A stretch of 39,923 nucleotides of DNA from Minisyncoccota bacterium. Lineage in GTDB: Bacteria; Patescibacteriota; Minisyncoccia; Phycocordibacterales; SBAW01. Of this stretch, positions 5,400-39,923 are shown one piece after another; position 1 is the stretch's first letter, and every line of letters starts with the position of its first letter. The notes under the pieces were generated by a model. The model searched no databases. It had not been told where the DNA came from and worked only from the letters and a program-made list of their open reading frames with translations. The stretch spans positions 1 to 39,923 of the forward strand of contig DASYIO010000122.1 in assembly GCA_035997465.1 (NCBI GenBank), read 5' to 3'. Both the position numbers and the translations under genes were made by a program.

Positions 5400-5609
5400 A
5401 TGCACAAAATGTATCTGTTCCTGTCTCGGCGCACTGGCAAGATACAATTCCAGCTTATGACAGGTCCTGATGACGAGGCGGCGGCGTGGGCCGCCTTGGC
5501 GAAAATCAGCAAAAACACAGTCGATCATCAAAAGAATATCTCAAGGCTTGTCTTTTCTCCGGGGTGTCTGAAACGGTCCCTGAGAGCGGTCCTGAGAGCG
5601 CGACGCTAG
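5400..5609 (+). CDS. Hypothetical small basic protein (69 aa). Coding status is uncertain.
   Basis: GAGG lies 5 nt upstream of the ATG. The stop at 5607-5609 is followed 10 nt later by a terminator hairpin. I recognise no family. The 3' part contains a 13/12 nt tandem repeat, so this could instead be RNA structure. Confidence 0.3.
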   Translation: MHKMYLFLSRRTGKIQFQLMTGPDDEAAAWAALAKISKNTVDHQKNISRLVFSPGCLKRSLRAVLRARR

Positions 5610-5619
5610 CCATCCGAGG

Positions 5620-5650
5620 AGCCATCCAACGGGTGGCTTTTCGATTGTTT
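5620..5650 (+). terminator. Rho-independent terminator upstream of secE
   Basis: AGCCATCC-AAC-GGGTGGCT (8 bp stem) followed by TTTCGATTGTTT. A second AGCCATCC copy at 5608-5615 could form an alternative pairing. Confidence 0.5.
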
Positions 5651-5722
5651 GACGCTTCCGGAAAAGAGGAGTACTGTAGGGAAAAGGCCCGGGAGGGCTT
5701 TTAAAATTGCCAAATTTACATT

Positions 5723-5893
5723 ATGTGGAACTACTTTAGAGACGTCCGAGCCGAAATGAAGCATGTCAGCTGGCCTTCGCGCCAGGTCACTATTACCTAC
5801 ACGGCCGTTGTGGTGGGCGTATCTGTCGCCACTGCGGTATACCTTGGCCTGCTCGACTACGTCTTCCGCCTTATTATCGAAAAGATAATTTAA
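5723..5893 (+). CDS. secE: Preprotein translocase subunit SecE (56 aa). Not in the ORF track because it is shorter than 60 aa.
   Basis: My own translation is MWNYFRDVRAEMKHVSWPSRQVTITYTAVVVGVSVATAVYLGLLDYVFRLIIEKII. It has the E-x-K-K/H-V-x-WPS motif plus a single TM, and lies directly upstream of nusG-rplK (conserved secE-nusG-rplK order). Confidence 0.8.
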   Translation: MWNYFRDVRAEMKHVSWPSRQVTITYTAVVVGVSVATAVYLGLLDYVFRLIIEKII

Positions 5894-5899
5894 TCTCCT

Positions 5900-6451
5900 A
5901 TGTCCAAACAAGACACATCGGTCGGGCGCGCCTGGTACGCCATCCACACTTACGCAGGCTACGAAAACGCCGTGGCGCGCAACTTGCGCCAGCGCATCGA
6001 GTCGCTGGGCCTCTCTGAGAAGATATTTCAGGTAATAGTGCCGACAGAAAAGACCATAAAAATTAAGGGCGGCCGTAGGGTAGAGGAGGAGGAAAAAGTT
6101 TACCCGGGCTATGTCTTGGTAGACATGATAGTAGACGACCAGTCGTGGTACGTCGTGCGCAACACCCCGCGCGTCACCGGCTTTGTGGGCTCGGGCGTTA
6201 ACCCGGTGCCGCTTAAGCAAGACGAGGTAGACACACTGCTTGGCCGCATGCAGGCGACCGAGGGCAGCGTTAAGCACTCTATCGATCTTTCGGCCGGAGA
6301 CTCGGTTGTCATTGTCGATGGGCCATTTAAGGACCTCGACGGCAAAGTGGGCGAGGTAGACGAGGCTCGCGGCAAGGTTAAGGTCTTGGTGGCGATGTTT
6401 GGCCGCGAGACGCCGGTAGAACTCGACTTCTTGCAAATAAAGCGAATCTAA
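5900..6451 (+). CDS. nusG: Transcription termination/antitermination factor NusG
   Basis: WYAIHTYAGYENAV (NGN domain), and the KOW region GDSVVIVDGPFKDLDGKVGEVD...KVKVLVAMFGRETPVELDF. Confidence 0.95.
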   Translation: MSKQDTSVGRAWYAIHTYAGYENAVARNLRQRIESLGLSEKIFQVIVPTEKTIKIKGGRRVEEEEKVYPGYVLVDMIVDDQSWYVVRNTPRVTGFVGSGVNPVPLKQDEVDTLLGRMQATEGSVKHSIDLSAGDSVVIVDGPFKDLDGKVGEVDEARGKVKVLVAMFGRETPVELDFLQIKRI

Positions 6452-6549
6452 TCTATTCTGCGGAAACTTCCCAGGAAAAAGTCCTCGGGTCGTCCCTCTT
6501 GGGGACATCCACCAGACTATTTTCCTGAAAAGTTTCCGCGACATCCAAC

Positions 6550-7036: not shown

Positions 7037-7546
7037 TCAGCGGAAATAATTTACGACCCGAGTTGGGTAAGGATCTTGCGCGCGATGGACCATCACGCGA
7101 TCGTGTAGACCGAGTCTCCAACCGGACTCATCGAACTTAGGAAAGAACCGGTCGCCGCCAGCGCCCACGTCGACCTTGGTGAGGTAGATGCGGTTGGCGC
7201 TCGGGAGAAAGTCTCGATACACTCTTTCTCCGCCGATGACGCAGACCTCTTGTGCGTCTTGGGTCATCGCGAGCGCTTCCTCTGGCGTCTTCGCGACCAC
7301 GCAGTTGGAGTGGATGACGAGTTCTGGGCGGCTTGTGATGACGATCTTCTTTCTCCCGGGCAGAGGCTCGCCGTCTGTTTGAGGTAGAGACAAGTAGGTC
7401 TCCATCCCCATAATGAGCGGCTTGTTGCGTGTCAGAAGACTGAATTGCCTCATATCGCTTGGGATGCGCTCCCAAGGGATCTTTCCTTCGTTGCCAATGG
7501 CCCAACTGGGGTGAGCCACAGCGGCTATCAAGCTGATAATCGGCAT
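7037..7546 (-). CDS. folA: Dihydrofolate reductase
   Basis: MPIISLIAAVA...AIGNEGKIPW...PSDMRQFSLLTRNKPLIMGMETYLSLP...LPGRKKIVITS...VCVIGGERVY is the DHFR pattern. The ATG at 7546 is preferred over 7561 because AAAGGTGA lies 4 nt upstream of it. Confidence 0.85.
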   Translation of the reverse strand: MPIISLIAAVAHPSWAIGNEGKIPWERIPSDMRQFSLLTRNKPLIMGMETYLSLPQTDGEPLPGRKKIVITSRPELVIHSNCVVAKTPEEALAMTQDAQEVCVIGGERVYRDFLPSANRIYLTKVDVGAGGDRFFPKFDESGWRLGLHDRVMVHRAQDPYPTRVVNYFR

Positions 7547-7675
7547 GGCGTCACCTTTCATGTACGTGCCTCAAAAACTATACCGAACACCTGACCTTTT
7601 GCATAACACTGTTTGGCGTGGCACTATGGCGGCGGGAGAACCATCAACCAGTGGCCGTCCGGCCGGGAGAGAAAT

Positions 7676-8341
7676 ATGAATCAGGTGCCCAAAGCGAGCC
7701 TTGCCTGGCTAGACTTTATTTTTGCGGTCGGATTGTTCAAAGTTGAGCAGGATTGGCTCCGGCGTCATACGGCGGAGCCGCGTCCCACTCCGCTGGCTGC
7801 CGATGATGTGGCGCTCGAATTCGGCCCCCATCGACTGTCCTCGCATGCGTTGTGGGCAGAGTTGGACGAGCGTGGTCAGGACCATTACTGGTTCCAGATC
7901 CTCAGGGTGTGGACCTTTGCTCATCAGTCGGGTGCGTTTCCGGAGTATCTCAACAAGGCAGTCCCGAGTCTCGGAGAAGGCAGGTCCAAGCACGTAAGCC
8001 GGGGTCTGGGGGCCCTGTTGAAAGAAAAAGCCCTTCGTAACTCGGACATGTCCAGCCGCTCGATCCTAACCTGGATCGAAAACAGCGGCGAGCATTTGTC
8101 TCGTTTTAGCCCTGACTTAGCGGAACGATTCTTCAACGTCACCGAGCAAAGGGGCTGGCGGTCTTGCCGAACTGATACGCTTGCACGCGACATCTATGTG
8201 TTGGCGATCGCTAACGGCCCCACTGCCATGCAATCCGATGTCTTTTGGGTCGGGTACGAAGGGTCGCTCGCGGGAGTGCGTCGTGACTGCCATCTGGGGC
8301 CCGAGCTCTCGCGCATCAAAAAGAGCGAAAAGGCTCAGTAG
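7676..8341 (+). CDS. Hypothetical protein (221 aa), no family recognised
   Basis: Long ORF with GGGAGAG 4 nt upstream of the ATG at 7676 (the listed start at 7613 is a TTG). A terminator follows. It lies between folA and the dCMP deaminase. Confidence 0.5.
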   Translation: MNQVPKASLAWLDFIFAVGLFKVEQDWLRRHTAEPRPTPLAADDVALEFGPHRLSSHALWAELDERGQDHYWFQILRVWTFAHQSGAFPEYLNKAVPSLGEGRSKHVSRGLGALLKEKALRNSDMSSRSILTWIENSGEHLSRFSPDLAERFFNVTEQRGWRSCRTDTLARDIYVLAIANGPTAMQSDVFWVGYEGSLAGVRRDCHLGPELSRIKKSEKAQ

Positions 8342-21833: not shown

Positions 21834-23264
21834 ATGGATGAGAAGAAGTTTTATATAACGACGCCAATTTTTTACCCCAATGCCAACCTGCACTTGGGGC
21901 ATGCGTATGTTACGACACTAAGCGATGTGCTGGCCCGCTACCATCGTCTGATGGGGGATAAAACATACTTTTTAACCGGCTCGGACGAAAACGCGCAGAC
22001 AGTGGTACAGGGTGCGCAAAAGGCTGGGGTGGATTTTAAGTCGTTTGTAGACGAGCGGATAGAAAAGAACTTTAAGCCGCTTTTTGCCGACCTTAATATC
22101 TCTAACGACCAGTTTATCCGCACATCCGACCAAAAAGCCCATTGGCCGGGGGCTGTTGCATTATGGAAAAAGCTCGTCGATGCGGGCGACATCTACAAAA
22201 AAGAGTATGAGGGCCTATATTGCATAGGGCATGAGGCCTTTATTACTGAAAAAGAGTTGGTAGACGGCAAATGTCCCGATCATGGCACGGTGCCCGAGCG
22301 CACAAAAGAAGAAAATTACTTTTTTAGTCTTTCTAAGTACACGGGCGTTATTAAGCAAAAAATCGAGTCAGACGAGCTCTTAATAGTGCCCCCAAGTCGC
22401 CGCAACGAGATACTCTCACTGCTAGAGCAGGGTCTGCAAGACGTGAGCTTTTCGCGCCCGGCAGCCAAGGTCCCTGTGGGCATACCGGTGCCGGGCGACG
22501 AGTCGCAGGTGATGTACGTGTGGTGCGACGCACTGGCTAACTACATTACGGCCTTGGGCTATGGCCGGGAAGACGACTCTTTGTTTAAAGAGTTTTGGCC
22601 GGGCATACATGTTATTGGCAAAGATATATTGCGCTTCCATGCGGCTATATGGCCCGGCATGCTTTTGTCGGCCGGGTTGCCACTGCCTAAGGCTATCTTG
22701 GTGCACGGGATGATAATCTCGGGCGGCAAAAAAATGTCCAAGACACGCGGCAACGTTATAGACCCGCAAGAGCTCTTAAAAGAGTACGGCACCGATGCCG
22801 TGCGCTACTTTCTCTCAAGGCACGTCTCGCCGCTCGACGACAGCGAAATGACACTCGAGTTGCTTAAAGACGCCTACAATGCCGATCTGGCAAACGGACT
22901 GGGCAATCTTTCGGCGCGTATTATGCAGTTGGCCGAAACTCACTTGGCACAAGGGACACGGCCAGACGTTGCGGGCTTCCCCAAAGAATATACAGATGCA
23001 ATGGAAAGCTTTGAGATAAATAAGGCCGCCGAGTTTGTGTGGTCGCGTATACAGGCGCTCGATCAAAAGATTACCGAGACAGCGCCGTTTAAGCTTGTTA
23101 AGACAGACCCGGAGGCCGGTAAAAAAATAATCTTTGACCTAACCCAAGGGCTGTACCTTATCGGCCGGATGCTCAACCCGTTTATGCCTGACACGAGCAA
23201 AATAATTAAAGACGCGGTTGTAGAAAACAACAAGCCCCAAAACCTCTTCGCCCGCAAAGACTGA
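21834..23264 (+). CDS. metG: Methionine--tRNA ligase (short form, no C-terminal tRNA-binding domain)
   Basis: FYITTPIFYPNANLHLGHAY (HLGH), WCDALANYITALGY, and GGKKMSKTRGNVI (KMSKS). Confidence 0.95.
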   Translation: MDEKKFYITTPIFYPNANLHLGHAYVTTLSDVLARYHRLMGDKTYFLTGSDENAQTVVQGAQKAGVDFKSFVDERIEKNFKPLFADLNISNDQFIRTSDQKAHWPGAVALWKKLVDAGDIYKKEYEGLYCIGHEAFITEKELVDGKCPDHGTVPERTKEENYFFSLSKYTGVIKQKIESDELLIVPPSRRNEILSLLEQGLQDVSFSRPAAKVPVGIPVPGDESQVMYVWCDALANYITALGYGREDDSLFKEFWPGIHVIGKDILRFHAAIWPGMLLSAGLPLPKAILVHGMIISGGKKMSKTRGNVIDPQELLKEYGTDAVRYFLSRHVSPLDDSEMTLELLKDAYNADLANGLGNLSARIMQLAETHLAQGTRPDVAGFPKEYTDAMESFEINKAAEFVWSRIQALDQKITETAPFKLVKTDPEAGKKIIFDLTQGLYLIGRMLNPFMPDTSKIIKDAVVENNKPQNLFARKD

Positions 23265-24055
23265 TGGACTTCAAACTCTTCGATTCGCATTGCCACTTGT
23301 ATATGGAGGAGTTTAGTGGAGATCGCGATGCGGTCTTAGCGCGTATGCAAGAGCAGAAGATCGGCGCTGTGCTAATAGGGGCTGACCTTAAGACGAGCAA
23401 ACAGGCGCTTGAGTTAGCACAACAGCACGATTTTTTATGGGCTGCTGTGGGGTTGCATCCAAACGATAATCCGTCAGAGGTGTTTGACGCGGCTGTATAT
23501 GAGCAATTGGCACGCGACCCAAAGGTTGTTGCAGTAGGGGAGTGTGGGCTCGAATACCGCAGCTCCGCCGATGAGGAGCGGAATAACCAGATACTCAGAT
23601 TTGAAATGCAAATTGCCTTGGCACAAAAGGTGAGAAAGCCGCTGGTAGTGCATTGCCGTGATCCCCGCAAAAAGGATCCTCTCACAAAAAGTGCGCACGA
23701 CGATATGCTCGCATTACTTGCCGAGTGCAAGCCAACGGTGCCAGTTGTCATCCACTTTTTTACCGGTACGGCTGAGTTGGCGCAAAAATACCTCGACCTA
23801 GGCTGTTACTTGTCCTTTCCGGGCCCTGTAACCTACACCGACATGTACGACGAGAGCATACAAATAACGCCGATGGATAGGATGCTTATCGAGACCGACG
23901 CTCCTTTTGCCGCCCCGGTGCCAAACCGCGGCCGACGCAACGAGCCCGCGTATGTAGCCGATGTTGCGCGTAAAATTGCTGTGCTAAAAGGGCTTGCCTT
24001 TGAGGATGTTGCGGCGCAGACCGCTAAAAACGCTTCATCTGTTTTTTCCTTATAA
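23264..24055 (+). CDS. TatD-family metal-dependent hydrolase/DNase
   Basis: [46 protein letters not shown]. The start overlaps the metG stop (TGATG). Confidence 0.9.
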
Positions 24056-25562: not shown

Positions 25563-26099
25563 ATGGCAAAAAAGTCGCAGGCCGATGAGGCCTTTACCCA
25601 AGCGACCGATGCTCCTTCCGGGGCGGACGTCACAAGTGCCCCCATTATTTATGAGGTCGGTTTTCATCTTGTCCCAACTATCGCCGAAGACGGCGTCGGT
25701 GCCGCAGTCGAAAAAGTTCGCAAGGCAATAGGCGCCGATGCAGAGTTTATCAGCGAGGTCTATCCTACAAAAATGCAGCTGGCCTATGTTATCGAGCGCG
25801 CCGCACAGGGCAAGCGCGAAAAGTACGGCGAGTCGTGGTTTGGCTGGATAAAGTTTGCCCAGATACCAAGCAAGATCCCCGCACTCGAGGCCGAGCTTAA
25901 TGCCTCGCGCGAGGTGTTGCGCAGCCTTATCATAGAGACCGTCCGCGAGGATATCGCACCCCCTAAGGCGCGCGCCGTCTTTGTGTCCGACCGCCTCGAG
26001 GGCGAGACCATTAAGAAGCCTGCAGCACCACAAGAGAAGCCTGCCGAGGTGAGCGAGGTTGAGCTTGATAAGTCGATTGACGCTTTGACCCAGGAGTAG
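25563..26099 (+). CDS. rpsF: 30S ribosomal protein S6, with N- and C-terminal extensions
   Basis: IYEVGFHLVP...KMQLAYVIE core, and its position at the head of the conserved rpsF-ssb-rpsR cluster. Confidence 0.75.
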   Translation: MAKKSQADEAFTQATDAPSGADVTSAPIIYEVGFHLVPTIAEDGVGAAVEKVRKAIGADAEFISEVYPTKMQLAYVIERAAQGKREKYGESWFGWIKFAQIPSKIPALEAELNASREVLRSLIIETVREDIAPPKARAVFVSDRLEGETIKKPAAPQEKPAEVSEVELDKSIDALTQE

Positions 26100-26579: not shown

Positions 26580-26629
26580 TGGGATCAATATAAAAGACCT
26601 TCTAATTGCGTAAGCAAAAAATAAAAATT

Positions 26630-26824
26630 ATGGCTAAAGAATACGCACCGCAGTTTGTCCGCATCGACTACAAGGACACCGAGACTCTTAAAAAGTTCAT
26701 CAACCCGCACGGCAAGATAATGGCGCGCCGCCGCACCAACCTCTCTGCGCCGAATCAAAGGGCTGTAGCCGAGGCAATAAAGCGGGCGCGCTTTATGGCA
26801 CTCTTGCCCTATATTGTTCGCTAA
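26630..26824 (+). CDS. rpsR: 30S ribosomal protein S18
   Basis: [50 protein letters not shown]. The ATG at 26630 is preferred over the listed TTG at 26606. Confidence 0.9.
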
Positions 26825-26837
26825 ATTTGAGATATGG

Positions 26838-26866
26838 AAAGCCCCGGCTTACGCCGGGGCTTTTTC
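26838..26866. terminator. Bidirectional rho-independent terminator between rpsR (+) and the minus-strand cassette
   Basis: AAAGCCCCGGC-TTAC-GCCGGGGCTTT followed by TTTCG. Confidence 0.75.
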
Positions 26867-26885
26867 GTGTAGTCATGGGGCAGAC

Positions 26886-27071
26886 TTAACCCTTGAGCAT
26901 AGAACGTCGGAGGTTCTTTGCATGCGGGTATTGCCTGAGGATCTCTTCCCGTTTTTGTTTCGTGTTACGCGCCAAAGCCTCGTCGCTGTCTGCTTCGAAA
27001 TATTCGGATTTCGTGGCTCCATCCACCTCGAAGAGCAGCACATATCCCCATGTATACCTCCACCGGGACAT
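26886..27071 (-). CDS. Hypothetical small soluble protein (61 aa), third gene of the minus-strand cassette
   Basis: GGGGAAAGAAG SD just before the ATG. It is preceded by a copy of the 21-nt motif and followed by the terminator at 26838-26866. Confidence 0.4.
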   Translation of the reverse strand: MSRWRYTWGYVLLFEVDGATKSEYFEADSDEALARNTKQKREEILRQYPHAKNLRRSMLKG

Positions 27072-27089
27072 CTTCTTTCCCCATCAGTT

Positions 27090-27110
27090 GTCAGCGGGCG
27101 GGATGCCCGA
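27090..27110 (-). repeat. 21-nt GC-rich motif, copy 1 (+ strand GTCAGCGGGCGGGATGCCCGA), upstream of the 61-aa ORF
   Basis: 20/21 identical to copy 3. The core CGGGATGCCCG begins 27 nt upstream of the start codon at 27071. Confidence 0.7.
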
Positions 27111-27121
27111 GGTTCTGCTCG

Positions 27122-27610
27122 CTACTCTTTGGGCAGCGCGAGATACTTGTGGGAATACTGGCTGCCGTAGCTCCCGTCCTCCCAGATCACTTTTACCTTG
27201 CCGGGGTCGTAGTCGCCGTAGGGTGCGAGGATAACCTTTTGTTCGGCGATCACACGCTTCATTTTCCGATTCAACGGTCTGGTACGGAAGATGTACCAGA
27301 GGCTCGATACGAGAGCCACGGGTGCCATGGCCGATGCGAAGAAGAGGGCGAGAGGGAAGACAACAGGCTTACTGAGGACAAAGAAGTAGGCGAACACCAC
27401 CACCGCGCCCAAAGCCCCCAAAGCCACGGACTTCCAGGTGTCACTGAGCAGAATTCTATTAAGATCCAGCTCCTCGTTCTTTTTCCTCTGGAGTTCGTCG
27501 ACATCGGCCGCGTCCATGCGGATGATAATCTCGCCGGTATCCTCCGGCTCGGTCTCGAGGAACACGTGCTCCTCGCTGCCGACCGTCTTAACTACCCAGC
27601 GCCTTTTCAT
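27122..27610 (-). CDS. Hypothetical membrane protein (162 aa; soluble N-domain, 2 TM, soluble C-domain)
   Basis: AAAGGAGA SD. The ATG overlaps the upstream stop (ATGA), which suggests translational coupling. Two central hydrophobic helices (ALGALGAVVVFAYFFVL and VVFPLALFFASAMAPVALVSSLWYIF). Confidence 0.55.
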   Translation of the reverse strand: MKRRWVVKTVGSEEHVFLETEPEDTGEIIIRMDAADVDELQRKKNEELDLNRILLSDTWKSVALGALGAVVVFAYFFVLSKPVVFPLALFFASAMAPVALVSSLWYIFRTRPLNRKMKRVIAEQKVILAPYGDYDPGKVKVIWEDGSYGSQYSHKYLALPKE

Positions 27611-28107
27611 GGTGTATCTCCTTTGTTTGTGAGCGGGATGCCCGTGTCAGGAAGAGGGAAGAGGACACCACTTTTGCCGCGATGGCAGTCCGGTGTCCCG
27701 ATATTGCTGACGATATAGTCACGCCCAGTAGATACGCGGAGCATTTCTAATCGCGCGCGTATAAGTTTACGCTCTAAGTCTTCTTGCTTGGGGCTAACCC
27801 AAAAGCGCATTGTGGCCCAAAATATCAGCATGTAGACGAGTACCAACGCGCCTAGTATCGCCGTAAAGAGCTTTAATTCCTCTTCTGTCTCAGAGATGAT
27901 TCCGGAGACCACTGCAATCATCAGCAGTAATAGGGTGGCGATGCTTGCAGTCGAAAGTATCAAGGCGGTGCGAATGTAGAGCCGGAATTGTTGCCGGCTA
28001 CATTCTTTACCGAGAGTCTTCCACTGGTCGATTACTTCCGGTTCGACGTAGATGACTTCGGGTCCCAGTTGGACTAGGCGGCCATCAATAACGGCATGTT
28101 CGGTCAT
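27607..28107 (-). CDS. Hypothetical membrane protein (166 aa; soluble N-domain, 2 TM, soluble C-domain)
   Basis: GAGGAAG SD 4 nt before the ATG. Two central helices (ALILSTASIATLLLLMIAVVSGII and LFTAILGALVLVYMLIFWATM). The architecture matches the next gene. Confidence 0.55.
   Translation of the reverse strand: MTEHAVIDGRLVQLGPEVIYVEPEVIDQWKTLGKECSRQQFRLYIRTALILSTASIATLLLLMIAVVSGIISETEEELKLFTAILGALVLVYMLIFWATMRFWVSPKQEDLERKLIRARLEMLRVSTGRDYIVSNIGTPDCHRGKSGVLFPLPDTGIPLTNKGDTP
27631..27644 (-). repeat. Core motif, copy 2 (GAGCGGGATGCCCG), upstream of the 162-aa ORF and inside the 3' end of the 166-aa ORF
   Basis: It shares GCGGGATGCCCG with copies 1 and 3. The core is 23 nt upstream of the start at 27610. 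A TGTCAG follows at 27645-27650. Confidence 0.6.
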
Positions 28108-28124
28108 GACTTCCTCGTTTATAT

Positions 28125-28145
28125 GTCAGAGGGCGGGATGCCCGA
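28125..28145 (-). repeat. 21-nt GC-rich motif, copy 3 (+ strand GTCAGAGGGCGGGATGCCCGA), upstream of the 166-aa ORF
   Basis: The core is 26 nt upstream of the start codon at 28107, the same geometry as copy 1. Confidence 0.7.
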
Positions 28146-28256
28146 TCTGTCCGGCGCAACCATACGACCAATACGGCACTTGGTCAGGAGTCTGTCGGGT
28201 TTTCTAGGTTAGAAAGTCAAAATACACTGGTAAATAAGCTTTTTCTAATGTAAATT

Positions 28257-28296
28257 TGTCAGAAATATTGACAATACCTGAGAGTTGATATAAAGT
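28257..28296 (+). promoter_or_regulatory. Candidate promoter of the TrmB-like gene, with an overlapping palindrome
   Basis: TGTCA-GAAATAT-TGACA inverted repeat (28257-28273) contains a perfect TTGACA (28268-28273). TATAAA is at 28289-28294. The ATG at 28303 is only 6-8 nt downstream and has no SD, so the mRNA would be leaderless or nearly so. Confidence 0.4.
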
Positions 28297-28302
28297 GCTC
28301 GC

Positions 28303-29037
28303 ATGGATATCAAGTCACTTGCCGCTATGGGTGTAGGCGAGAAGTCGGCCAAGGTTTACTTGGCGGGCTTGGCTTTGGGCACCACAAGCGTGCAGGATTT
28401 GGCCCGCAAAAGTGGCCTTAAGCGCCCCACCGTATATTTGCACCTCGACGACTTGGTTAAGCAGGGGCTTGTGGAGCACGTCTCGATAAATAAAAAGAAA
28501 TACTACCGCGCTGTGGAACCCTTGGTGTTGGAGGAGAGGCTCAAAAAAAGTCTGGCGCATTTGCAGCACGAGATGCCGCAGCTATTAGCGATGCGCGCCA
28601 ACACTATGGGCCGGCCACAGGTGCAGGTGTACGAGGGCGAGGAGGGGATACGGCATGTCTACAGCGAGATGAAAAAAGCTCGCAGCATGCGTATATGGTC
28701 TAACATTGGCGAGCCTGGGACCTTGCACAACACCAATATGGAGTTGGCCGAGGCAATACATGAGCGTGCTACCAATGTGCGCGAGATTATTGCCGGCACT
28801 AAAGAAACTAAGCGCTACTCGCGGCTTGTCGCAAAGGTCATCGGCCCGTCGTACTCGGCGCGCACGGCGACAGTCGAGGGTTTGCACAACGACACTATTA
28901 TTTATGACGATGTGGTCGCGATATTTAGACTGCAGGGCTTAAATATGTTCGTGGTGCGGATAGAAGACCCGACCATAGCCGACACCATGCGTGCGATGTT
29001 TGAGATGGCGTGGAAGACTGCCCGACCTTTTAAATAA
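28303..29037 (+). CDS. TrmB-family winged-helix transcriptional regulator
   Basis: N-terminal LGVGEKSAKVYLAGLALGTTSVQDLARKSGLKRPTVYLHLDDLVKQGLVEHV...KKKYYRAVEP is the TrmB HTH pattern. The C-terminal domain (about 150 aa) has the length usual for this family. Confidence 0.75.
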   Translation: MDIKSLAAMGVGEKSAKVYLAGLALGTTSVQDLARKSGLKRPTVYLHLDDLVKQGLVEHVSINKKKYYRAVEPLVLEERLKKSLAHLQHEMPQLLAMRANTMGRPQVQVYEGEEGIRHVYSEMKKARSMRIWSNIGEPGTLHNTNMELAEAIHERATNVREIIAGTKETKRYSRLVAKVIGPSYSARTATVEGLHNDTIIYDDVVAIFRLQGLNMFVVRIEDPTIADTMRAMFEMAWKTARPFK

Positions 29038-29106
29038 GATTGCTCTGCTTCGATCGTTTTGTTATAACCACATTGGGTACGAACAACCAAACGGGAGCCT
29101 AAAGCC

Positions 29107-29703
29107 ATGTTGTCCTCTGCGGACCAACGAGCTGTTGACTACTACAACAAGTTCGCGCGAGGCCGCACACAGGCCCCGCCCGATATCGAGCTAGTCTCTG
29201 ACGACTTTGCGCGCCAGACGTACTGTTTTCTCCCTGCGGTCAACCGAGTGGTGGATGCCGGGTGCGGATATGGACGGGCCGTTCCTCTCCTAAGAGAGCT
29301 CGGGACGACCGATTATCTGGGAGTGGACCCGTCGCGCGAGCAAGTGCGCTTGGCACGGCTGTTGCACCCGGACTGTACGTTTGAAGTATCGAGTTTGTAC
29401 GACCTGGGCACACGGCATCTGGGGGAGTTCGACGGGTTCTTCCTGTGCGCAGTCCTCTTCTGCATCCCGCGGCACCGTCTGGCGCGTGCGTTCAAATCCT
29501 TGCGGGCCTCTCTTAAGCAGGGTGCAACGGGGCTGGCCTCTGCCACTATAGGACGGGGGACTATCGCAAATACCGACGGCCTAGAACTCACGCTCTATCA
29601 ACCCCAAGAATTGATAGACGTTGCCAAAGCGGCTGGGTTTAGTGTCCGCGACTGTCGGGTGGTGGAAGGACGGCTGTTCCAGGTATCTTTAGAAGCCGTG
29701 TAG
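29107..29703 (+). CDS. Class I SAM-dependent methyltransferase, substrate unknown
   Basis: VVDAGCGYGRAV (motif I), YLGVDPS (motif II acidic residue), FDGFFLCAVLFCIP (motif IV region). GGGAG SD upstream. Confidence 0.75.
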   Translation: MLSSADQRAVDYYNKFARGRTQAPPDIELVSDDFARQTYCFLPAVNRVVDAGCGYGRAVPLLRELGTTDYLGVDPSREQVRLARLLHPDCTFEVSSLYDLGTRHLGEFDGFFLCAVLFCIPRHRLARAFKSLRASLKQGATGLASATIGRGTIANTDGLELTLYQPQELIDVAKAAGFSVRDCRVVEGRLFQVSLEAV

Positions 29704-29717
29704 GCTTCTCGCAAACG

Positions 29718-29747
29718 AAAGAGCCCGGCGCAAGCCGGGCTCTTTGT
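29718..29747. terminator. Bidirectional terminator between the methyltransferase (+) and efp (-)
   Basis: AAAGAGCCCGGC-GCAA-GCCGGGCTCTTT (12 bp, GNRA loop) followed by GTTTATTTTTT. Confidence 0.75.
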
Positions 29748-30323
29748 TTATTTTTTGTCGACACGCTCGACGTACTGACCTGTTTCGGTATTTATGCGCA
29801 CGACGTCGCCCTCGTTTATAAACATTGGGGCCTCAATGGTAGCACCCGTCTCGAGGGTGACCGTCTTGGATGCGCCCTGCGCGGTGTTGCCCTTAACGGC
29901 GGGCGGAGCCTCGGTGATTTTAAGTTCAACTTTGATAGGAACTTTGATGTCGATTATTTTCTCGTCAAAGACAAGTGCCTCGACTATCGAGTTAACTTTA
30001 AGGAACTGCGCGCCAACGCCAATGGTATCCTCCGATAGCACAAAGCGGTCGGCGGGATTATTTTCGGCGCAAAACCATCTCTCGCCCCTGTTGGTATAAA
30101 GGTATTTGACCGACTTGGTCGAAAGGTCGGCCTCCTCGACCTTTTCGGTCGCGTGGAAGGCCTGCTCGGTTACCCGGCCAGTTATGATATGGCGCAGTTT
30201 TGTCTGGTTGACTGGCTTGCGCATCTGCTTGCGAAAGACGTGCGCGTCCAATACCTCGTACGGTTCGCCGTCGATCAAAATAACCCGCTTGGGGAGTATC
30301 TCGTTGTATTCGAGCATTGCCAT
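29748..30323 (-). CDS. efp: Elongation factor P
   Basis: Full-length EF-P pattern: ...IDGEPYEVLDAHVFRKQMRKPVNQTKLRHIITG...KVELKITEAPPAVKGNTAQGASKTVTLETGATIEAPMFINEGD. Confidence 0.95.
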   Translation of the reverse strand: MAMLEYNEILPKRVILIDGEPYEVLDAHVFRKQMRKPVNQTKLRHIITGRVTEQAFHATEKVEEADLSTKSVKYLYTNRGERWFCAENNPADRFVLSEDTIGVGAQFLKVNSIVEALVFDEKIIDIKVPIKVELKITEAPPAVKGNTAQGASKTVTLETGATIEAPMFINEGDVVRINTETGQYVERVDKK

Positions 30324-38003: not shown

Positions 38004-39923
38004 ATGTCTACTCTTACTAACAGTTCGACTCGCCTCGCTGCGCTCGTCGCAGGCGTTGCAGTTGCACTCGCTCTTATGAGCGCAGTTGCAGTTGCTCCGG
38101 CACAAGCTGCAGGACTTTCGTCCACGCAGGTGCAGGCAATCGTTACCTTGCTCGCATCGTTTGGTGCTGACTCGGCTACGATCGCAAATGTCACCGCGGC
38201 CCTTAACGGCCAGGCGACTACGGGTACTGGCTCCGGCTCTGCTGGCGCTTGCCCGGTTCTCTCACGTTCGCTTTCGTTGGGCGCAACTGGCGCAGACGTC
38301 AAGTCTCTTCAGATGTTCCTCAACGCTTCTGCTAACACCCGTGTTGCTGTATCCGGCGCAGGCTCTCCTGGTTTGGAGACCACCTACTTCGGTCCGGCTA
38401 CTCAGTCGGCAGTAGTTAAGTTCCAGGCTGCTAACAACGTCTCCGCTATCGGCGTCGTTGGTCCTGCAACCCGCGCAGCTATCGCAGCAGTCTGCGGTAC
38501 TACGGGCACTGGTACCGGCACCGGTACTGGTACGGGCACTGGCACTGTAGTCCTCCAGGGTGGCGAGGGTTCGCTCGATGAAATCGACAACACCTCTTCT
38601 AACCTCGAGTCCACAGTCCGCGAGGGCGAGACTCAGAATGTCTACGGAGTTCAGGCTAAGGCCAAAGACTCTGACGTCATGATCGAGCGTGTTGACGTTG
38701 ACTTTACCCGCTCTGACACCACTCCTGGCGCAAGCTCTTCTCACCTTGATGACTATGTCTCCAAGGTAAGCTTGAACCTTGACGGCAAAGAGCTCGCTTC
38801 TATGGATGTCGACTCGGCAGACGAGAACGACAAGGCCACTGGCGACTTCGACAACACTGCAGACACCGGCGACAGCAAGGTTTACTCTTTCCGCTTCTCT
38901 GGTCTTAAGGGAGTGATAAAGGAGGACGACCTCGCTCGCTTGTACGTATCTGTTAAGGCTGTCAGCAACGTCGACTCTGACGATGCAGGCAAGACTTGGT
39001 ACGTCCACATCCCGGTAGACGGCATCCGCGCCGTTGACGGTGCTGGTATCTCTGACACCTACGGTACTGACTCTGAGCTCGACGATGATACGTTCTCAGT
39101 CGAAAAGGCTGAGTCCGGCGACCTTAACCTCACTGCAAACGGCAGCGACAACGAGGACCGCGTAATCACTGTCAGCGCAGACAATGACACTAACGGTGAG
39201 GAGGTAATGGCCTTCAACCTTAAGTCTCAGACCTCTGACAACAACATCTCGGAGATCCGCGTAAACCTCGCAACCACCACTTCTACTTCGACTATGCTCT
39301 CTTCTGCTATCAACCAGTTGCACCTCTTCCAGGGCTCCAAGGAGATCGCAAGCGCAGACATCGAGGGCAGCATGGGTGACGAGCACGCTATCTTCGACAA
39401 CCTCGACGTGGACATCAATGAGGACAGCGACGTTGACTTTACCGTCAAGGCTGACTTCAACGACAACGCTGACGAGCGCAATGGTCTCGCATTCCAGGCT
39501 TCTATCCCGGGTTCCGGTATCGAGGCTGAGGACGGCGAGCAGGATGATGTAACCATCGGTAACACTGTTACCGGCGGCGAAATCGAGCTCCGCACTACGG
39601 GCATCACGGCGGTCTTTAAGAGCGCTGATGAGGTTCGCAGCAACGGTTCTCTCGCAGGTGACGCTGACGCAGTTGACTTCACCATCAAGTTCAGCGTAAC
39701 TGCTGTAGGCGATGACGATGTCTTCCTCGACGGCGACGTCCTCCAGGGCGTTGTGGCTCCGACCACCGCGACCGACGGTTTGACGTGGGCAACCACGACT
39801 GACTCGAGCACTGGTACTTCCAGCTACACCGGTATCCTTACCGCTGATGATGGTTACCAGAGCGGCGACGACACCAACAACGCAGGCGACAAGCGCTTCA
39901 AGATCGAGTCCGGTGCGACCAGG
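38004..39923 (+). CDS. Secreted cell-surface (S-layer-like) protein: signal peptide, PG_binding_1-like domain, Thr-Gly linker, and acidic beta-rich repeats. The 3' end runs off the window.
   Basis: Not in the ORF track because no stop is reached. My translation from the ATG at 38004 stays open for 640 codons to 39923. It begins MSTLTNSSTRLAALVAGVAVALALMSAVAVAPAQA/AG. The peptidoglycan-binding-like segment is CPVLSRSLSLGATGADVKSLQMFLN...TYFGPATQSAVVKFQAANNVSAIGVVGPATRAAI. Then come GTTGTGTGTGTGTGTGT and D/T/S/N/G-rich modules. Third-position bias is strong (GCT/GGT/ACT/TCT/GAC/AAC/CTC), unlike neighbouring genes. Confidence 0.8.
   Translation, partial: MSTLTNSSTRLAALVAGVAVALALMSAVAVAPAQAAGLSSTQVQAIVTLLASFGADSATIANVTAALNGQATTGTGSGSAGACPVLSRSLSLGATGADVKSLQMFLNASANTRVAVSGAGSPGLETTYFGPATQSAVVKFQAANNVSAIGVVGPATRAAIAAVCGTTGTGTGTGTGTGTGTVVLQGGEGSLDEIDNTSSNLESTVREGETQNVYGVQAKAKDSDVMIERVDVDFTRSDTTPGASSSHLDDYVSKVSLNLDGKELASMDVDSADENDKATGDFDNTADTGDSKVYSFRFSGLKGVIKEDDLARLYVSVKAVSNVDSDDAGKTWYVHIPVDGIRAVDGAGISDTYGTDSELDDDTFSVEKAESGDLNLTANGSDNEDRVITVSADNDTNGEEVMAFNLKSQTSDNNISEIRVNLATTTSTSTMLSSAINQLHLFQGSKEIASADIEGSMGDEHAIFDNLDVDINEDSDVDFTVKADFNDNADERNGLAFQASIPGSGIEAEDGEQDDVTIGNTVTGGEIELRTTGITAVFKSADEVRSNGSLAGDADAVDFTIKFSVTAVGDDDVFLDGDVLQGVVAPTTATDGLTWATTTDSSTGTSSYTGILTADDGYQSGDDTNNAGDKRFKIESGATR
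38496..38546 (+). repeat. Imperfect hexanucleotide (GGY ACN) tract encoding the (Gly-Thr)n linker
   Basis: The tract reads ggtactacgggcactggtaccggcaccggtactggtacgggcactggcact. Confidence 0.8.

Follow-up and report, generated by a model that had tools for sequence, protein, structure and literature searches.

TrmB-type transcription regulators are the closest described counterparts of the regulator encoded at the locus analyzed here; the site of one of them, TrmBL1/Tgr, is TATCAC-N5-GTGATA (PMC4158304). The locus is a 2.9-kb block between rpsR and efp, and it lies in a window of 39,923 nucleotides, the whole stretch of Minisyncoccota contig DASYIO010000122.1 that was analyzed. It carries three small genes (A, B and C), a TrmB-family regulator and a methyltransferase (MT), which an earlier note had taken for a horizontally acquired cassette. 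With moderate confidence, we instead interpret the block as a conserved regulator with two variable slots, in which the A-B-C trio is driven by a repeated leader and MT is specific to this genome, and not as an acquired cassette.

Organization of the block

All five ORFs were recovered as previously called, and the ATGA overlap, formed by the stop codon of A and the start codon of B, proved real. The genes and the hairpins at their ends are as follows.

26838..26866, unstranded: hairpin terminator of the convergent pair rpsR (+) / ORF C (-), by folding energies
26886..27071, minus strand: ORF C, 61 aa, soluble, orphan, from the ORF list
27122..27610, minus strand: gene B, 162 aa, 2-TM, B-type family member, from the ORF list and HMM
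27607..28107, minus strand: gene A, 166 aa, 2-TM, A-type family member, from the ORF list and HMM
28303..29037, plus strand: TrmB-family regulator, 244 aa, by Pfam TrmB
29107..29703, plus strand: class I SAM-dependent methyltransferase (MT), 198 aa, by Pfam Methyltransf_25/11/12
29718..29747, unstranded: bidirectional intrinsic terminator of the convergent pair MT (+) / efp (-), by folding energies

Both terminators are genuinely strong hairpins on both strands, with energies of -23 to -27 kcal/mol and z-scores of -5.4 to -6.1, and equal folding was reached in 0/200 shuffles. Specifically, the rpsR-side hairpin folds at -26.5 kcal/mol on the plus strand and -23.2 kcal/mol on the minus strand (z about -6 and -5.4), with a good U-tract on the former and a short one, only a 3-T tail, on the latter; the efp-side hairpin folds at about -26.8 kcal/mol on either strand (z about -6). 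Their proposed function as cassette insulation did not hold: they are ordinary ends of the convergent pairs rpsR/C and MT/efp, and a homologue of the rpsR-side hairpin was found in the relatives L005 and L006.

A core-like regulator between two variable slots

The regulator matches Pfam TrmB at 47.5 bits (cut-off 25.6) and consists of a wHTH and a coiled-coil helix, followed by a C-terminal domain that is PLD-like. Its AF2 model (pLDDT 86.7) was matched by Foldseek to TrmBL2 over the full length (5bpd, E = 2e-14) and to TrmB (3qph, E = 1e-10), while the C-terminal domain resembles NucT/SauUSI. Across Patescibacteria we found 144 homologues, whose identity declines gradually from 84% to 30%, and relatives with a 56-84% identical regulator have it between rpsR and efp. 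The order rpsF-ssb-rpsR-slot-regulator-efp is retained in L005/L008, L006, L012, L013, L066, L068, L071 and L072, and is partly covered in L070, where the contig ends before efp, and in L073, where the regulator is a fragment only. Because of its graded homologues, typical codons and k-mers, kept gene order and TrmBL2-like fold, the regulator is, on this evidence, a conserved core gene at its ancestral rpsR-efp position in a Kaiserbacteria-related Paceibacterota clade.

The gap between rpsR and the regulator forms the first slot. It holds one to three small envelope-protein genes, depending on the genome, which are transcribed divergently from the regulator, and its content differed in every genome examined. 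The flanking genes are 56-98% identical to those of the window; the slot proteins reach no more than 25-38% identity or show no relationship, and those of other genomes are often unrelated to A/B (e.g., lipoproteins and small TM peptides). The regulator adjoins small membrane-protein genes both in the rpsR-efp context (L005, L006, L066, L068, L071, L073) and in a second context beside ruvC (L069, L003), so that the two do travel together, and in this respect the earlier reading is supported. The adjacency argument is biased, since the regulator served to find most of the loci. In more distant CPR lineages, the divergent neighbor of the regulator codes for an amino-acid permease, for an ABC substrate-binding protein or for an aminotransferase.

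MT matches Pfam Methyltransf_25 at 44 bits (cut-off 27), all its NCBIfam matches fall under the cut-off, and its best PDB match is 3bkw (E = 3e-4). In L005, L006, L067, L068 and L071 it is missing from the regulator-efp interval, and unrelated genes occupy this position in L066 and L072. Since it is missing there in all relatives examined, MT lies outside the conserved module, contrary to its assignment to a cassette; by gene order and profile match, it is a generic methyltransferase specific to this genome, filling the regulator-efp interval, the second of the variable slots.

The A/B membrane proteins and ORF C

Topology and AF2 modeling agree with the build described for A and B before, namely two hydrophobic segments each (residues 49-67 and 80-98 in A, 61-79 and 89-107 in B) with soluble regions N- and C-terminal of them. 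In the family layout, beta strands at the N-terminus are followed by a long helical hairpin with 2 TM segments and by a basic helix, and the C-terminal strand carries YGxY...Y-L-x-L-P-K. Both termini of A and B are predicted to lie in the cytoplasm, where they would make up a small beta-sheet; the structure model of B is of modest confidence (pLDDT 66.8, 4-sequence alignment).

As had been claimed, the three small proteins stand outside any described family: A, B and C have no match in Pfam, PHROGs, PADLOC or NCBIfam. Foldseek returned no significant structural match and none to a known toxin or holin. A word-indexed search of 5.8e9 proteins gave no homologue of A, and an exhaustive HMMER search with B against 1.84e9 representatives gave only P0123 (38%, E = 1e-6) and P0125 (27%, E = 8e-4), the former being encoded in the same slot beside a regulator fragment and rpsR. 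Relatedness emerged within the collected loci, where phmmer connects A with L066_153 (E = 3.6e-15) and L005_169 (E = 1.4e-8), and B with L066 (E = 3e-5) and L071 (E = 2e-4), besides further pairwise links. Against family HMMs made without A-type or B-type sequences, respectively, A scores 20.3 bits and B 32.6 bits (shuffles below 9 bits), and the multiple alignment shows N- and C-terminal motifs common to the members. Given these pairwise links, the leave-subtype-out scores, the common motifs and the slot position of P0123, A and B are, as far as profiles can tell, paralogues that stand very far apart within one tiny family restricted to this clade.

ORF C differs in its record. It has no counterpart in any relative locus examined and occurs only in this population, on three contigs that are 99.99-100% identical; its codon use is the most atypical of the trio (z = -4.4). 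Against the A/B family HMM it scores 4.3 bits, with a shuffle maximum of 4.2, and this weak resemblance falls on the family helix after TM2. It is possible, though on the doubtful side, that the small ORFs, all or only some of them, are in decay or without function, with C perhaps a spurious ORF or a leftover that follows a duplicated leader: its lack of homologues, its confinement and its codon use would all suit this, and the weak likeness to the post-TM2 helix would suit a fragment. But C retains an intact ATG, with SD and leader spaced as for A and B, and for A/B intact full-length homologues with conserved motifs occur in at least 8 genomes, which argues that A and B are maintained genes. 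As these homologues occupy the same slot in relatives, A/B are best seen as a volatile family that is nevertheless maintained vertically in the lineage. Our best guess is that A, B and C are membrane-anchored, cytoplasm-facing envelope accessory proteins, fast-evolving under lineage-specific pressure.

Composition and the case for acquisition

The earlier impression of deviant codon choice was borne out in part: A, B, C and MT are atypical (z = -3.6, -2.0, -4.4 and -5.2); the regulator is typical (+0.1), and about seven further window genes are as atypical. Tetranucleotide distances rank at the 93rd percentile for A-B-C, the 92nd for MT, the 77th for the whole block and the 16th for the regulator, so that A-B-C and MT deviate in codons and mildly in k-mers, while the regulator and the GC content, which falls inside the window range, are ordinary. 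The reported contrast in SD strength was borne out by anti-SD duplex energies of -5.9 (A), -8.9 (B), -5.5 (C) and -6.6 (MT) kcal/mol, as just 4/34 other called window genes reach -5.5 kcal/mol or better. About 14 of these 34 genes have a TAnnnT box 6-9 nt ahead of the start and look leaderless.

These data bear on whether the whole 2.9-kb block is an acquired, terminator-insulated cassette, with A/B/C acting as a toxin/immunity, abortive-infection, holin-like or export system under local TrmB control. We consider this very improbable. The atypical codons and mildly deviant k-mers of A, B, C and MT would fit it, as would the variable slot content, the absence of A/B/C from known families, and the superficially holin-like look of small 2-TM proteins with charged tails; but acquisition of the whole is contradicted by the 144 graded homologues, typical composition and rpsR-efp synteny of the regulator, recent acquisition of A/B by homologues at the same chromosomal position in relatives, and membership of MT by its lack of conservation together with A/B/C. 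The proposed roles likewise found no backing in PADLOC, PHROGs or the Foldseek comparison with known toxins and holins, and no lysin, integrase or other mobile-element gene lies nearby.

A repeated leader ahead of A, B and C

Each gene of the trio is preceded by a copy of the same stem-loop.

28159..28187, minus strand: predicted sigma-70-type promoter of A-B-C (-35 CTGACC, 17-nt spacer, -10 TATGGT)
28131..28143, minus strand: stem-loop copy 1, GGGCATCCCGCCC, 25 nt upstream of the A ATG
27631..27643, minus strand: stem-loop copy 2, GGGCATCCCGCTC, with one G-U pair, 22 nt upstream of the B ATG
27096..27108, minus strand: stem-loop copy 3, GGGCATCCCGCCC, 26 nt upstream of the C ATG

The copies have an identical 12-nt core, CGGGCATCCCGC, located 22-26 nt 5' of each ATG. 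In 39.9 kb, where 0.42 occurrences would be expected, this exact 12-mer is present three times, and all copies precede the three ATGs; it had been overlooked in the earlier note. Copy 2 sits within the 3' end of the A coding sequence, where it reads ...PDTGIPL... in the A frame. The complete leader consists of the promoter, an AGAAG box, a GGGCA-N3-4-YGCCC stem-loop and the SD. In the alignment of relatives, a -35 CTGACA, a TAnnnT -10 and a CGCC-AGAAG box are conserved, and the stem-loop is kept in L003, L005, L006, L010, L066, L067, L068, L069 (two copies) and L071. In L073, which has family genes in the slot, no stem-loop was found, so the element is dispensable. Expression of the trio would depend on a sigma-70-type promoter of its own, some 45 nt upstream of A, with transcription inferred to start near 28150-28152.

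The leader of C is 41/48 identical to one in L003 that stands before an unrelated TM ORF of 52 aa, and the likeness ends at the ATG. Occurring before unrelated ORFs in relatives, the leader behaves as a portable expression module. The stem-loop itself probably acts on the mRNA, as a stabilizer, a processing mark or a translational-control site; each cistron could then be translated from its SD in a genome with mostly leaderless or SD-less starts. Its folding is not exceptional (z about 0 versus shuffles) and none of the 4 core pairs shows covariation. We favor an RNA hairpin over a dimer-bound DNA palindrome, since the loop varies from 3 to 4 nt across copies and the B copy carries a G-U pair, both better tolerated by RNA.

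That the element is a DNA site is in our judgment unlikely; it would then serve either a dimeric transcription factor, as a roadblock operator situated shortly after each start region, or cassette exchange, as a recombination site. The element is indeed a perfect short inverted repeat with sequence-conserved arms, without covariation and with unremarkable RNA folding energy, but a change of arm spacing from 3 to 4 nt is poorly tolerated by dimeric DNA binders, and the departure of the B copy from consensus retains a pair in RNA. Recombination at or near the element would give just this pattern, one leader before unrelated ORFs and a breakpoint located at the ATG; however, no recombinase or integrase gene lies near the slot within the window, and the element is always found on the sense strand, with its distance to the SD and ATG downstream fixed.

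Regulator promoter and putative operator

28257..28273, unstranded: palindrome TGTCAGAAATATTGACA, putative regulator operator, conserved in position across loci
28268..28296, plus strand: regulator promoter (TTGACA, 17-nt spacer, TAAAGT, 6 nt to the ATG)

The right arm of the palindrome doubles as the -35 box from which the regulator would be transcribed. The promoter spacing is kept across loci, and the 6 nt from -10 to ATG imply a leaderless mRNA. A palindrome of the form TGTCA-N7-TGACA, with at most 1 mismatch, lies no more than 60 nt from the start of the regulator in 40/63 loci, and 28-32 nt 5' of it in 32 of these 40, against a background of 16 other matches in 505 kb. Motif, position and conservation indicate that a regulator dimer most likely binds this sequence. 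As the palindrome overlaps the -35 box, the regulator would repress its own transcription, which suggests autoregulation through a conserved site. The A-B-C promoter has no full operator, and the palindrome lies about 110 nt upstream of the putative A-B-C start; for control of the trio by the regulator, only conserved adjacency would speak.

Comparison with known systems

A coupling reminiscent of Mlc held by PtsG could also be envisaged, in which A/B are signal-input partners whose cytoplasmic beta-domain sequesters and releases the regulator at the membrane, linking envelope or transport state to transcription. Such a partnership would suit a TrmBL2-like regulator without an effector subdomain that adjoins membrane proteins in two genomic contexts, and whose distant CPR neighbors include a permease, an ABC substrate-binding protein and an aminotransferase, as well as the predicted cytoplasmic ends and small beta-sheet of A/B. 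It is nevertheless quite improbable: the regulator family is far wider than the A/B family, so any partnership would be clade-specific, and slot proteins often unrelated to A/B fit poorly with a specific interface on a highly conserved regulator. In our preferred reading of a conserved regulator with variable slots, the comparison lies with the TrmB family itself. The regulator differs from TrmB in that the sugar-binding subdomain is missing and its architecture is TrmBL2-like, and its palindrome TGTCAGAAATATTGACA is built like the TrmBL1/Tgr site, as an inverted repeat of 17 bp (PMC4158304).

Organization of the block between rpsR and efp

The window is part of the metagenome-assembled genome of a member of Candidatus Paceibacterota (CPR/Patescibacteria), and the locus recurs on JGI and Logan contigs that are 99.99–100% identical to it. 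The block between rpsR and efp consists of a conserved TrmBL2-like regulator, probably autoregulated, located between two variable slots, namely the rpsR-to-regulator gap on the left and the regulator-to-efp gap on the right. The left slot contains tandem distant paralogues (A and B) of an undescribed, clade-restricted two-transmembrane (2-TM) family and an orphan ORF (C). All the features that an earlier note had listed, including the ORFs, the ATGA overlap, the TrmB regulator, the methyltransferase (MT) and two terminators, are present:

26838–26866: hairpin terminator (both terminators −23 to −27 kcal/mol, z −5.4 to −6.1)
26886–27071, minus strand: ORF C (61 aa), from the ORF listing
27122–27610, minus strand: gene B (162 aa), from the ORF listing; ATGA overlap with A
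27607–28107, minus strand: gene A (166 aa), from the ORF listing; ATGA overlap with B
28187–28182 and 28164–28159, minus strand: predicted A promoter (−35 CTGACC, 17-nt spacer, TATGGT)
28257–28273: palindrome TGTCA-N7-TGACA, putative operator; its right arm forms the −35 hexamer TTGACA
28303–29037, plus strand: regulator (244 aa), by its TrmB domain
29107–29703, plus strand: MT, class I SAM methyltransferase (198 aa), by Pfam
29718–29747: hairpin terminator

Both terminators comprise a stable GC-rich hairpin followed by a U-tract, as expected of intrinsic terminators, and the U-tract is weak solely in the minus-strand reading of the 26838–26866 hairpin. Their stems (26843–26858 and 29724–29739, repeat I1) are near-identical in inverted orientation over 16 nt with 94% complementarity, which probably reflects convergence of GC-rich terminator hairpins. 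The longest rpsR ORF (26606–26824, plus strand) starts from TTG and encodes 72 aa, while the ATG at 26630 (64–65 aa) is the start in relatives and in one gene call. The S6 gene (25563–26099) encodes 178 aa with a long C-terminal extension and scores 24.3 in Pfam, below the cut-off of 27. A 222-aa ORF on the plus strand (27050–27718), antisense to B and the 3′ end of A, is spurious, since its translation is of low complexity and B has homologues. Long antisense ORFs are common in this window of 54% GC, such as a 346-aa ORF antisense to rpsF and ssb.

The contrast in Shine-Dalgarno (SD) sequences pointed out earlier is borne out: the anti-SD duplexes of A, B, C and MT range from −5.5 to −8.9 kcal/mol, and −5.5 is reached by only 4 of the 34 other called genes. 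In about 14 of these 34, a TAnnnT box stands 6–9 nt ahead of the start codon, suggestive of leaderless mRNAs. Starts of this type, with TAnnnT ending 6–9 nt before the start and no SD, are found for example at 2235, 13474, 17359, 20754, 24075, 25563, 28303, 30429, 31397 and 34510 (minus strand), and SD-like sequences in the window occur mainly at operon-internal genes. This pattern suggests that leaderless mRNAs may be widespread in this Paceibacterota genome.

The block had also been taken for a horizontally acquired, insulated cassette with its own codon choice. A codon deviation does exist for A, B, C and MT (z = −3.6, −2.0, −4.4 and −5.2, respectively) and is absent from the regulator (+0.1); it is mild and not unique to the block, with several unrelated window genes at z −3 to −7. 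The tetranucleotide percentiles likewise indicate a mild deviation for A-B-C (93) and MT (92), with the block as a whole at 77 and the regulator at 16, and the GC content of the block is unremarkable. The acquisition claim itself is not supported by synteny, which shows a mostly old locus with fast-evolving occupants. As a caution, missing homologues, odd codon usage and flanking terminators together mimicked a horizontally acquired cassette. Elsewhere in the window, codon usage as atypical as that of the block (z −3 to −7) occurs at 97–903, 5606–6544, 7037–7561 and 7613–8341, and further at 23264–24055, 38262–39008 and 39227–39811; some of these may be mis-called ORFs, and others could be further variable or acquired genes.

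The regulator is TrmBL2-like and lies in a conserved gene order

The regulator has 144 homologues among Patescibacteria, including Kaiserbacteria, Adlerbacteria and Taylorbacteria, with identities that grade from 84% down to about 30%; a metagenome scan with the regulator yielded six loci only and nothing new. Synteny was compared in relatives whose regulator is 56–84% identical. The order rpsF-ssb-rpsR-[slot]-regulator-efp is kept in the relatives' loci L005/L008, L006, L012, L013, L066, L068, L071 and L072, and is partly covered by L070, whose contig stops before efp, and L073, which holds only a regulator fragment. Judged by these sequence comparisons, the regulator is a core gene and not an accessory one. 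A second, diverged paralogue (23–35% identity) often lies a few kb from the first (L009, L018–L020, L023, L027, L030, L031, L035 and L047), so the regulator family has expanded in some CPR genomes.

The Pfam TrmB winged helix-turn-helix (wHTH) domain (PF01978) matches residues 6–73 of the regulator with 47.5 bits against a cut-off of 25.6, and a profile of 40 homologues matches residues 9–116 of Pyrococcus furiosus TrmB (3qph) with E = 5e-8. The AF2 model built from the 40 homologues (pLDDT 86.7) displays the architecture of the solved TrmB and TrmBL2 structures, comprising the wHTH, a dimerisation helix and a C-terminal domain, and the last of these also resembles PLD-like nucleases. Over the full length, the model matches TrmBL2 (5bpd/5box) with E = 2e-14 and TrmB (3qph) with E = 1e-10. 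The sugar-binding effector subdomain is absent from the regulator, which has 244 aa compared with about 340 aa for TrmB/TrmBL1, and the NCBIfam TrmB/TrmBL1 equivalogs score only 21–28 bits against cut-offs of 600–650. TrmBL2 also has no sugar-binding subdomain (PMC4158304). Given the length, the NCBIfam scores far below cut-off and TrmBL2 as the best structural match, we regard the regulator as TrmBL2-like and not as a sugar-sensing TrmB. Nothing in these data points to a chromatin-like role.

A putative operator overlaps the regulator promoter

In 40 of 63 loci, the palindrome TGTCA-N7-TGACA is found, with at most one mismatch, in the 60 nt preceding the regulator start codon, and in 32 of these loci it lies 28–32 nt before that codon; only 16 other occurrences exist in 505 kb. 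The regulator promoter comprises TTGACA, a 17-nt spacer and the −10 box TAAAGT, followed by 6 nt to the ATG. The regulator mRNA is therefore predicted to be leaderless, and the palindrome overlaps the regulator's own promoter. Autoregulation is known in the TrmB family (PMC4158304), and the most economical reading of the present arrangement would be negative autoregulation through putative binding of the regulator to the palindrome. This site offers a clean, testable candidate operator for a TrmBL2-like regulator found across CPR.

A distal divergent promoter overlapping the operator (TTGTCA-16-TACATT) was considered and discarded, as its spacing is not conserved in L005. Additionally, a second short inverted repeat, TGCCTT-TAAT-AAGGCA, with variants such as AGCCTT...AAGG, is found between the operator and the divergent gene at several loci; it lies about 25–45 nt upstream of the operator in L017 and L018, and at about 6935–6955 in L005.

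Two variable slots flank the regulator

CPR/Patescibacteria genomes are full of unannotated small membrane proteins. In every relative, the rpsR-regulator gap contains one to three small genes, encoded on the opposite strand from the regulator and varying from genome to genome.

Table. Contents of the rpsR-regulator slot in relatives
L005: one 169-aa 2-TM protein
L006: 175 aa
L010: three TM peptides, 63–91 aa
L012, L013: other membrane proteins
L066: 153 aa
L068: 94 + 172 + 131 aa, ATGA overlap
L070: 116-aa TM protein and a lipoprotein
L071: 190 aa
L072: 256-aa protein
L073: 172 + 172 aa

The slot proteins are at most 25–38% identical to those of the window, whereas the flanking proteins are 56–98% identical, indicating that turnover and divergence proceed much faster in the slot than in its surroundings. 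For dN/dS, the JGI and Logan contigs offer no variation relative to the window, and the more distant homologues are too diverged (25–38% amino-acid identity). The locus is a concrete case of a chromosomal slot whose small envelope proteins are replaced far faster than the neighboring genes.

As described earlier, A and B each carry two hydrophobic segments with soluble N- and C-terminal regions on either side. None of the three small proteins falls into a recognised family of Pfam, PHROGs, PADLOC or NCBIfam. When A and B were each searched against 5.8e9 proteins by word index, the query was the sole hit. The A and B proteins have diverged past pairwise recognition; by sensitive comparison, A, B, eight slot proteins and P0125, a relative of B from the protein search, join in one family. 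Specifically, phmmer connects A with the 153-aa protein of L066 (3.6e-15) and the 169-aa protein of L005 (1.4e-8), B with the 153-aa protein of L066 (3e-5) and the 190-aa protein of L071 (2e-4), and the 175-aa protein of L006 with the 196-aa protein of L069 (4e-5), and HMMs built without the own subtype give 20.3 bits for A and 32.6 bits for B, with shuffles reaching at most 8.6 bits. The family alignment begins with an N-terminal G-x-E-x-V...V-I-R...D beta region, followed by a pair of TM helices with an outside loop of 3–28 residues between them, a basic helix, a YGxY motif and a C-terminal Y-L-x-L-P-K strand. From the distribution of positive charges, both termini are predicted to be cytoplasmic. 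An AF2 model of B from a four-sequence alignment (pLDDT 66.8) contains three N-terminal strands, a long helical hairpin (34–78 and 86–131) and a C-terminal strand; a Foldseek comparison with the PDB gave no match at E < 1, the hits being generic helical hairpins.

With B as the query, an exhaustive HMMER search covering 1.84e9 representative proteins recovered P0123 and P0125 as the sole true relatives, and P0123 occupies this slot as well, with a regulator fragment on one side and rpsR on the other. The family HMM found no further member in about 50 loci with more distant regulators, which confines the A/B family to a narrow clade. For ORF C no homologue was found. It weakly resembles the helix after the second TM segment of the A/B family (4.3 bits against a shuffle maximum of 4.2), and it is uncertain whether C is a genuine gene.

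The small genes had earlier been assigned a possible toxin, holin or defence role. The size and hairpin topology of A and B do recall holins, and Pfam matches of A/B to such 2-TM families exist, all of them weak, sub-threshold and limited to the TM region. Searches for the corresponding families gave no PADLOC matches for A, B and C and no PHROG for A and B, with C matching at E > 0.03 only; no lysin-like gene was called in the neighborhood, A/B have no secretion-system or lysin context, and they reach no family cut-off. PADLOC hits at the locus comprise only HTH portions of the Csa3/CasR models on the regulator and the methyltransferase portion of mad2 on MT. A toxin, holin or defence cassette is not supported by these results. 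What makes the locus valuable is a testable operator, a leader that is repeated, and the fast replacement of small envelope proteins in CPR.

The second slot contains MT, which matches Methyltransf_25 (44.0, cut-off 27), Methyltransf_11 (39.3, cut-off 21.2) and Methyltransf_12 (34.8, cut-off 30) in Pfam and has the Rossmann-type SAM-binding domain of class I SAM-dependent methyltransferases. No family with a defined substrate could be assigned: all NCBIfam matches are far below cut-off, the best being the DVU_1556 family with 31 bits against 155. The best PDB match is a generic methyltransferase (3bkw, E = 3e-4), and plasmid tblastn gives about 30% identity to unnamed class I methyltransferases. 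The efp gene directly follows the regulator, with no MT, in L005, L006, L067, L068 and L071, and the gap holds unrelated genes in L066 and L072. Being missing or replaced in relatives, MT is a genome-specific occupant of this slot and may be a recent acquisition.

A repeated leader precedes each small gene

The 12-mer CGGGCATCCCGC occurs in exactly three copies in the 39.9-kb window (0.42 expected; 0 of 100 shuffles reach three), one ahead of each of A, B and C at 22–26 nt from the ATG. It is the core of a leader that in relatives consists of −35 (CTGACA) and −10 (TAnnnT) boxes separated by a 17-nt spacer, then CGCC and AGAAG, a GGGCA-N3-4-YGCCC stem-loop, an A-rich stretch, an SD and the ATG. 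From the position of the predicted A promoter, transcription would start near 28150, giving about 45 nt of leader with the hairpin at its beginning. In B and C the hairpin and SD are retained but no −10 box is recognisable, so these genes are probably co-transcribed with A. The three copies are identical despite the divergence of A and B, which suggests that the element is constrained or homogenised.

The hairpin copy of B lies inside the 3′ end of the A coding sequence, which explains the extra C-terminal tail of A and an accidental LPXTG-like motif: A ends in ...LPDTGIPLTNKGDTP / ...FPLPDTGIPLTNKGDTP (27613–27657, minus strand), with LPDTG, and the residues DTGIPL are the translation of B's leader hairpin. 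LPDTG is almost certainly not a sortase signal, as A has neither a hydrophobic segment nor a basic tail after it, and no signal peptide.

The evidence as to whether the leader element acts as RNA or as DNA is mixed. The four core pairs of the stem are 100% paired, three of them invariant and one varying from G-C to G-U, with no double changes; an outer CAGA/UCUG helix is present inconsistently in some copies, and folding of ten leaders gave none more stable than shuffles. With Rfam, tRNAs alone pass the gathering score in the window, and a permissive scan of 26800–29800 matched the terminators alone, below threshold. A putative RNA-level role, such as a stabiliser, a processing mark or translational control, is favored by the variation of the loop between 3 and 4 nt, by the G-U pair of the B copy and by the constant placement of the element on the sense strand ahead of the SD. 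The element is not obligatory, since L073 has none. A match of GGGCATTCGATGCCC in L012 was excluded as a leader because it lies inside a coding sequence.

The C leader shares 41 of 48 positions with the leader of a 52-aa TM ORF in L003 that is itself unrelated, and the likeness does not extend past the ATG, so the leader behaves as a portable expression module for different ORFs. The same boundary excludes C as a frameshifted homologue of the 52-aa ORF. The leader has not been described previously, and it precedes each cistron in a genome largely devoid of SD sequences. A far-reaching scenario, to which we give little credence, is that the leader defines a dedicated expression site next to the regulator, where small envelope-protein ORFs of unrelated origin would come and go by exchange, duplication and loss, each joined precisely at its start codon. 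This would be a CPR-specific cassette system for the rapid diversification of small membrane proteins, possibly linked to host attachment or phage pressure, with the stem-loop bound by a dedicated RNA- or DNA-binding factor.

Regulator and small genes as a module

To our knowledge, almost nothing is known of gene regulation in CPR/Patescibacteria. The regulator adjoins leader-bearing small membrane-protein genes in the rpsR-efp context, and the same adjacency recurs in a second context beside ruvC (L069 and L003/L004), so that in part the two form a module. The ruvC-context loci also have very acidic, D/E-rich small ORFs directly downstream of the regulator (L003, 7779–7958, minus strand, 59 aa; L069, 3041–3181, minus strand, 46 aa). 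The adjacency argument is biased, since it was the regulator that led to most of the loci; P0123 is the sole data point free of this ascertainment bias.

The A-B-C promoter carries no full operator, and the palindrome lies about 110 nt upstream of the inferred start. In more distant CPR lineages, the gene divergent from the regulator encodes an amino-acid permease, a substrate-binding protein (NMT1 or Peripla_BP_6) or a class I/II aminotransferase; such transporter and aminotransferase neighbors were noted at L009, L011, L016–L018, L020, L023, L024, L003 and L051. This hints that the regulator family may control amino-acid or nutrient uptake. Given the missing full operator, the other neighbors in distant lineages and the ascertainment bias, control of A-B-C by the regulator is plausible but unproven.

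Comparison with known systems

The regulator shares with TrmBL2 the TrmB wHTH, the coiled-coil helix, the PLD-like C-terminal domain, a length of about 245 aa and the lack of a sugar-binding subdomain, and its recognition-helix tyrosine (Y45) is invariant, as in the archaeal TrmB family. Unlike that family, it is bacterial (CPR), with an identity of only about 15–18%. The putative operator is a 17-bp inverted repeat with the layout of the TrmBL1/Tgr site TATCAC-N5-GTGATA, the TGM operator (PMC4158304); it differs in its sequence and in overlapping a bacterial −35 box. The arrangement also resembles generic divergent regulator/membrane-gene pairs, with an intergenic region of about 195 nt, a palindromic operator at the regulator promoter and a membrane or transport neighbor. 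What sets it apart is that the neighbors are replaced between genomes, have their own proximal promoter with no full operator, and carry a conserved leader on every cistron.

5′-Proximal mRNA stem-loops stabilise transcripts or control translation, as exemplified by the ompA 5′ hairpin and the Bacillus aprE and ermC leaders. Like these, the present leader has a short GC-rich hairpin that lies no more than about 10 nt from the inferred 5′ end, upstream of the SD and conserved in position; unlike these, it is repeated before internal cistrons, has only 4–5 bp with no covariation, and is not in Rfam. Finally, the A/B family is comparable to class II holins, PrgI/VirB3-like proteins and DUF2721 in its 150–190 aa, 2-TM hairpin and charged cytoplasmic tails, and is distinguished from them by its conserved N-terminal beta strands and C-terminal YGxY...LPK.
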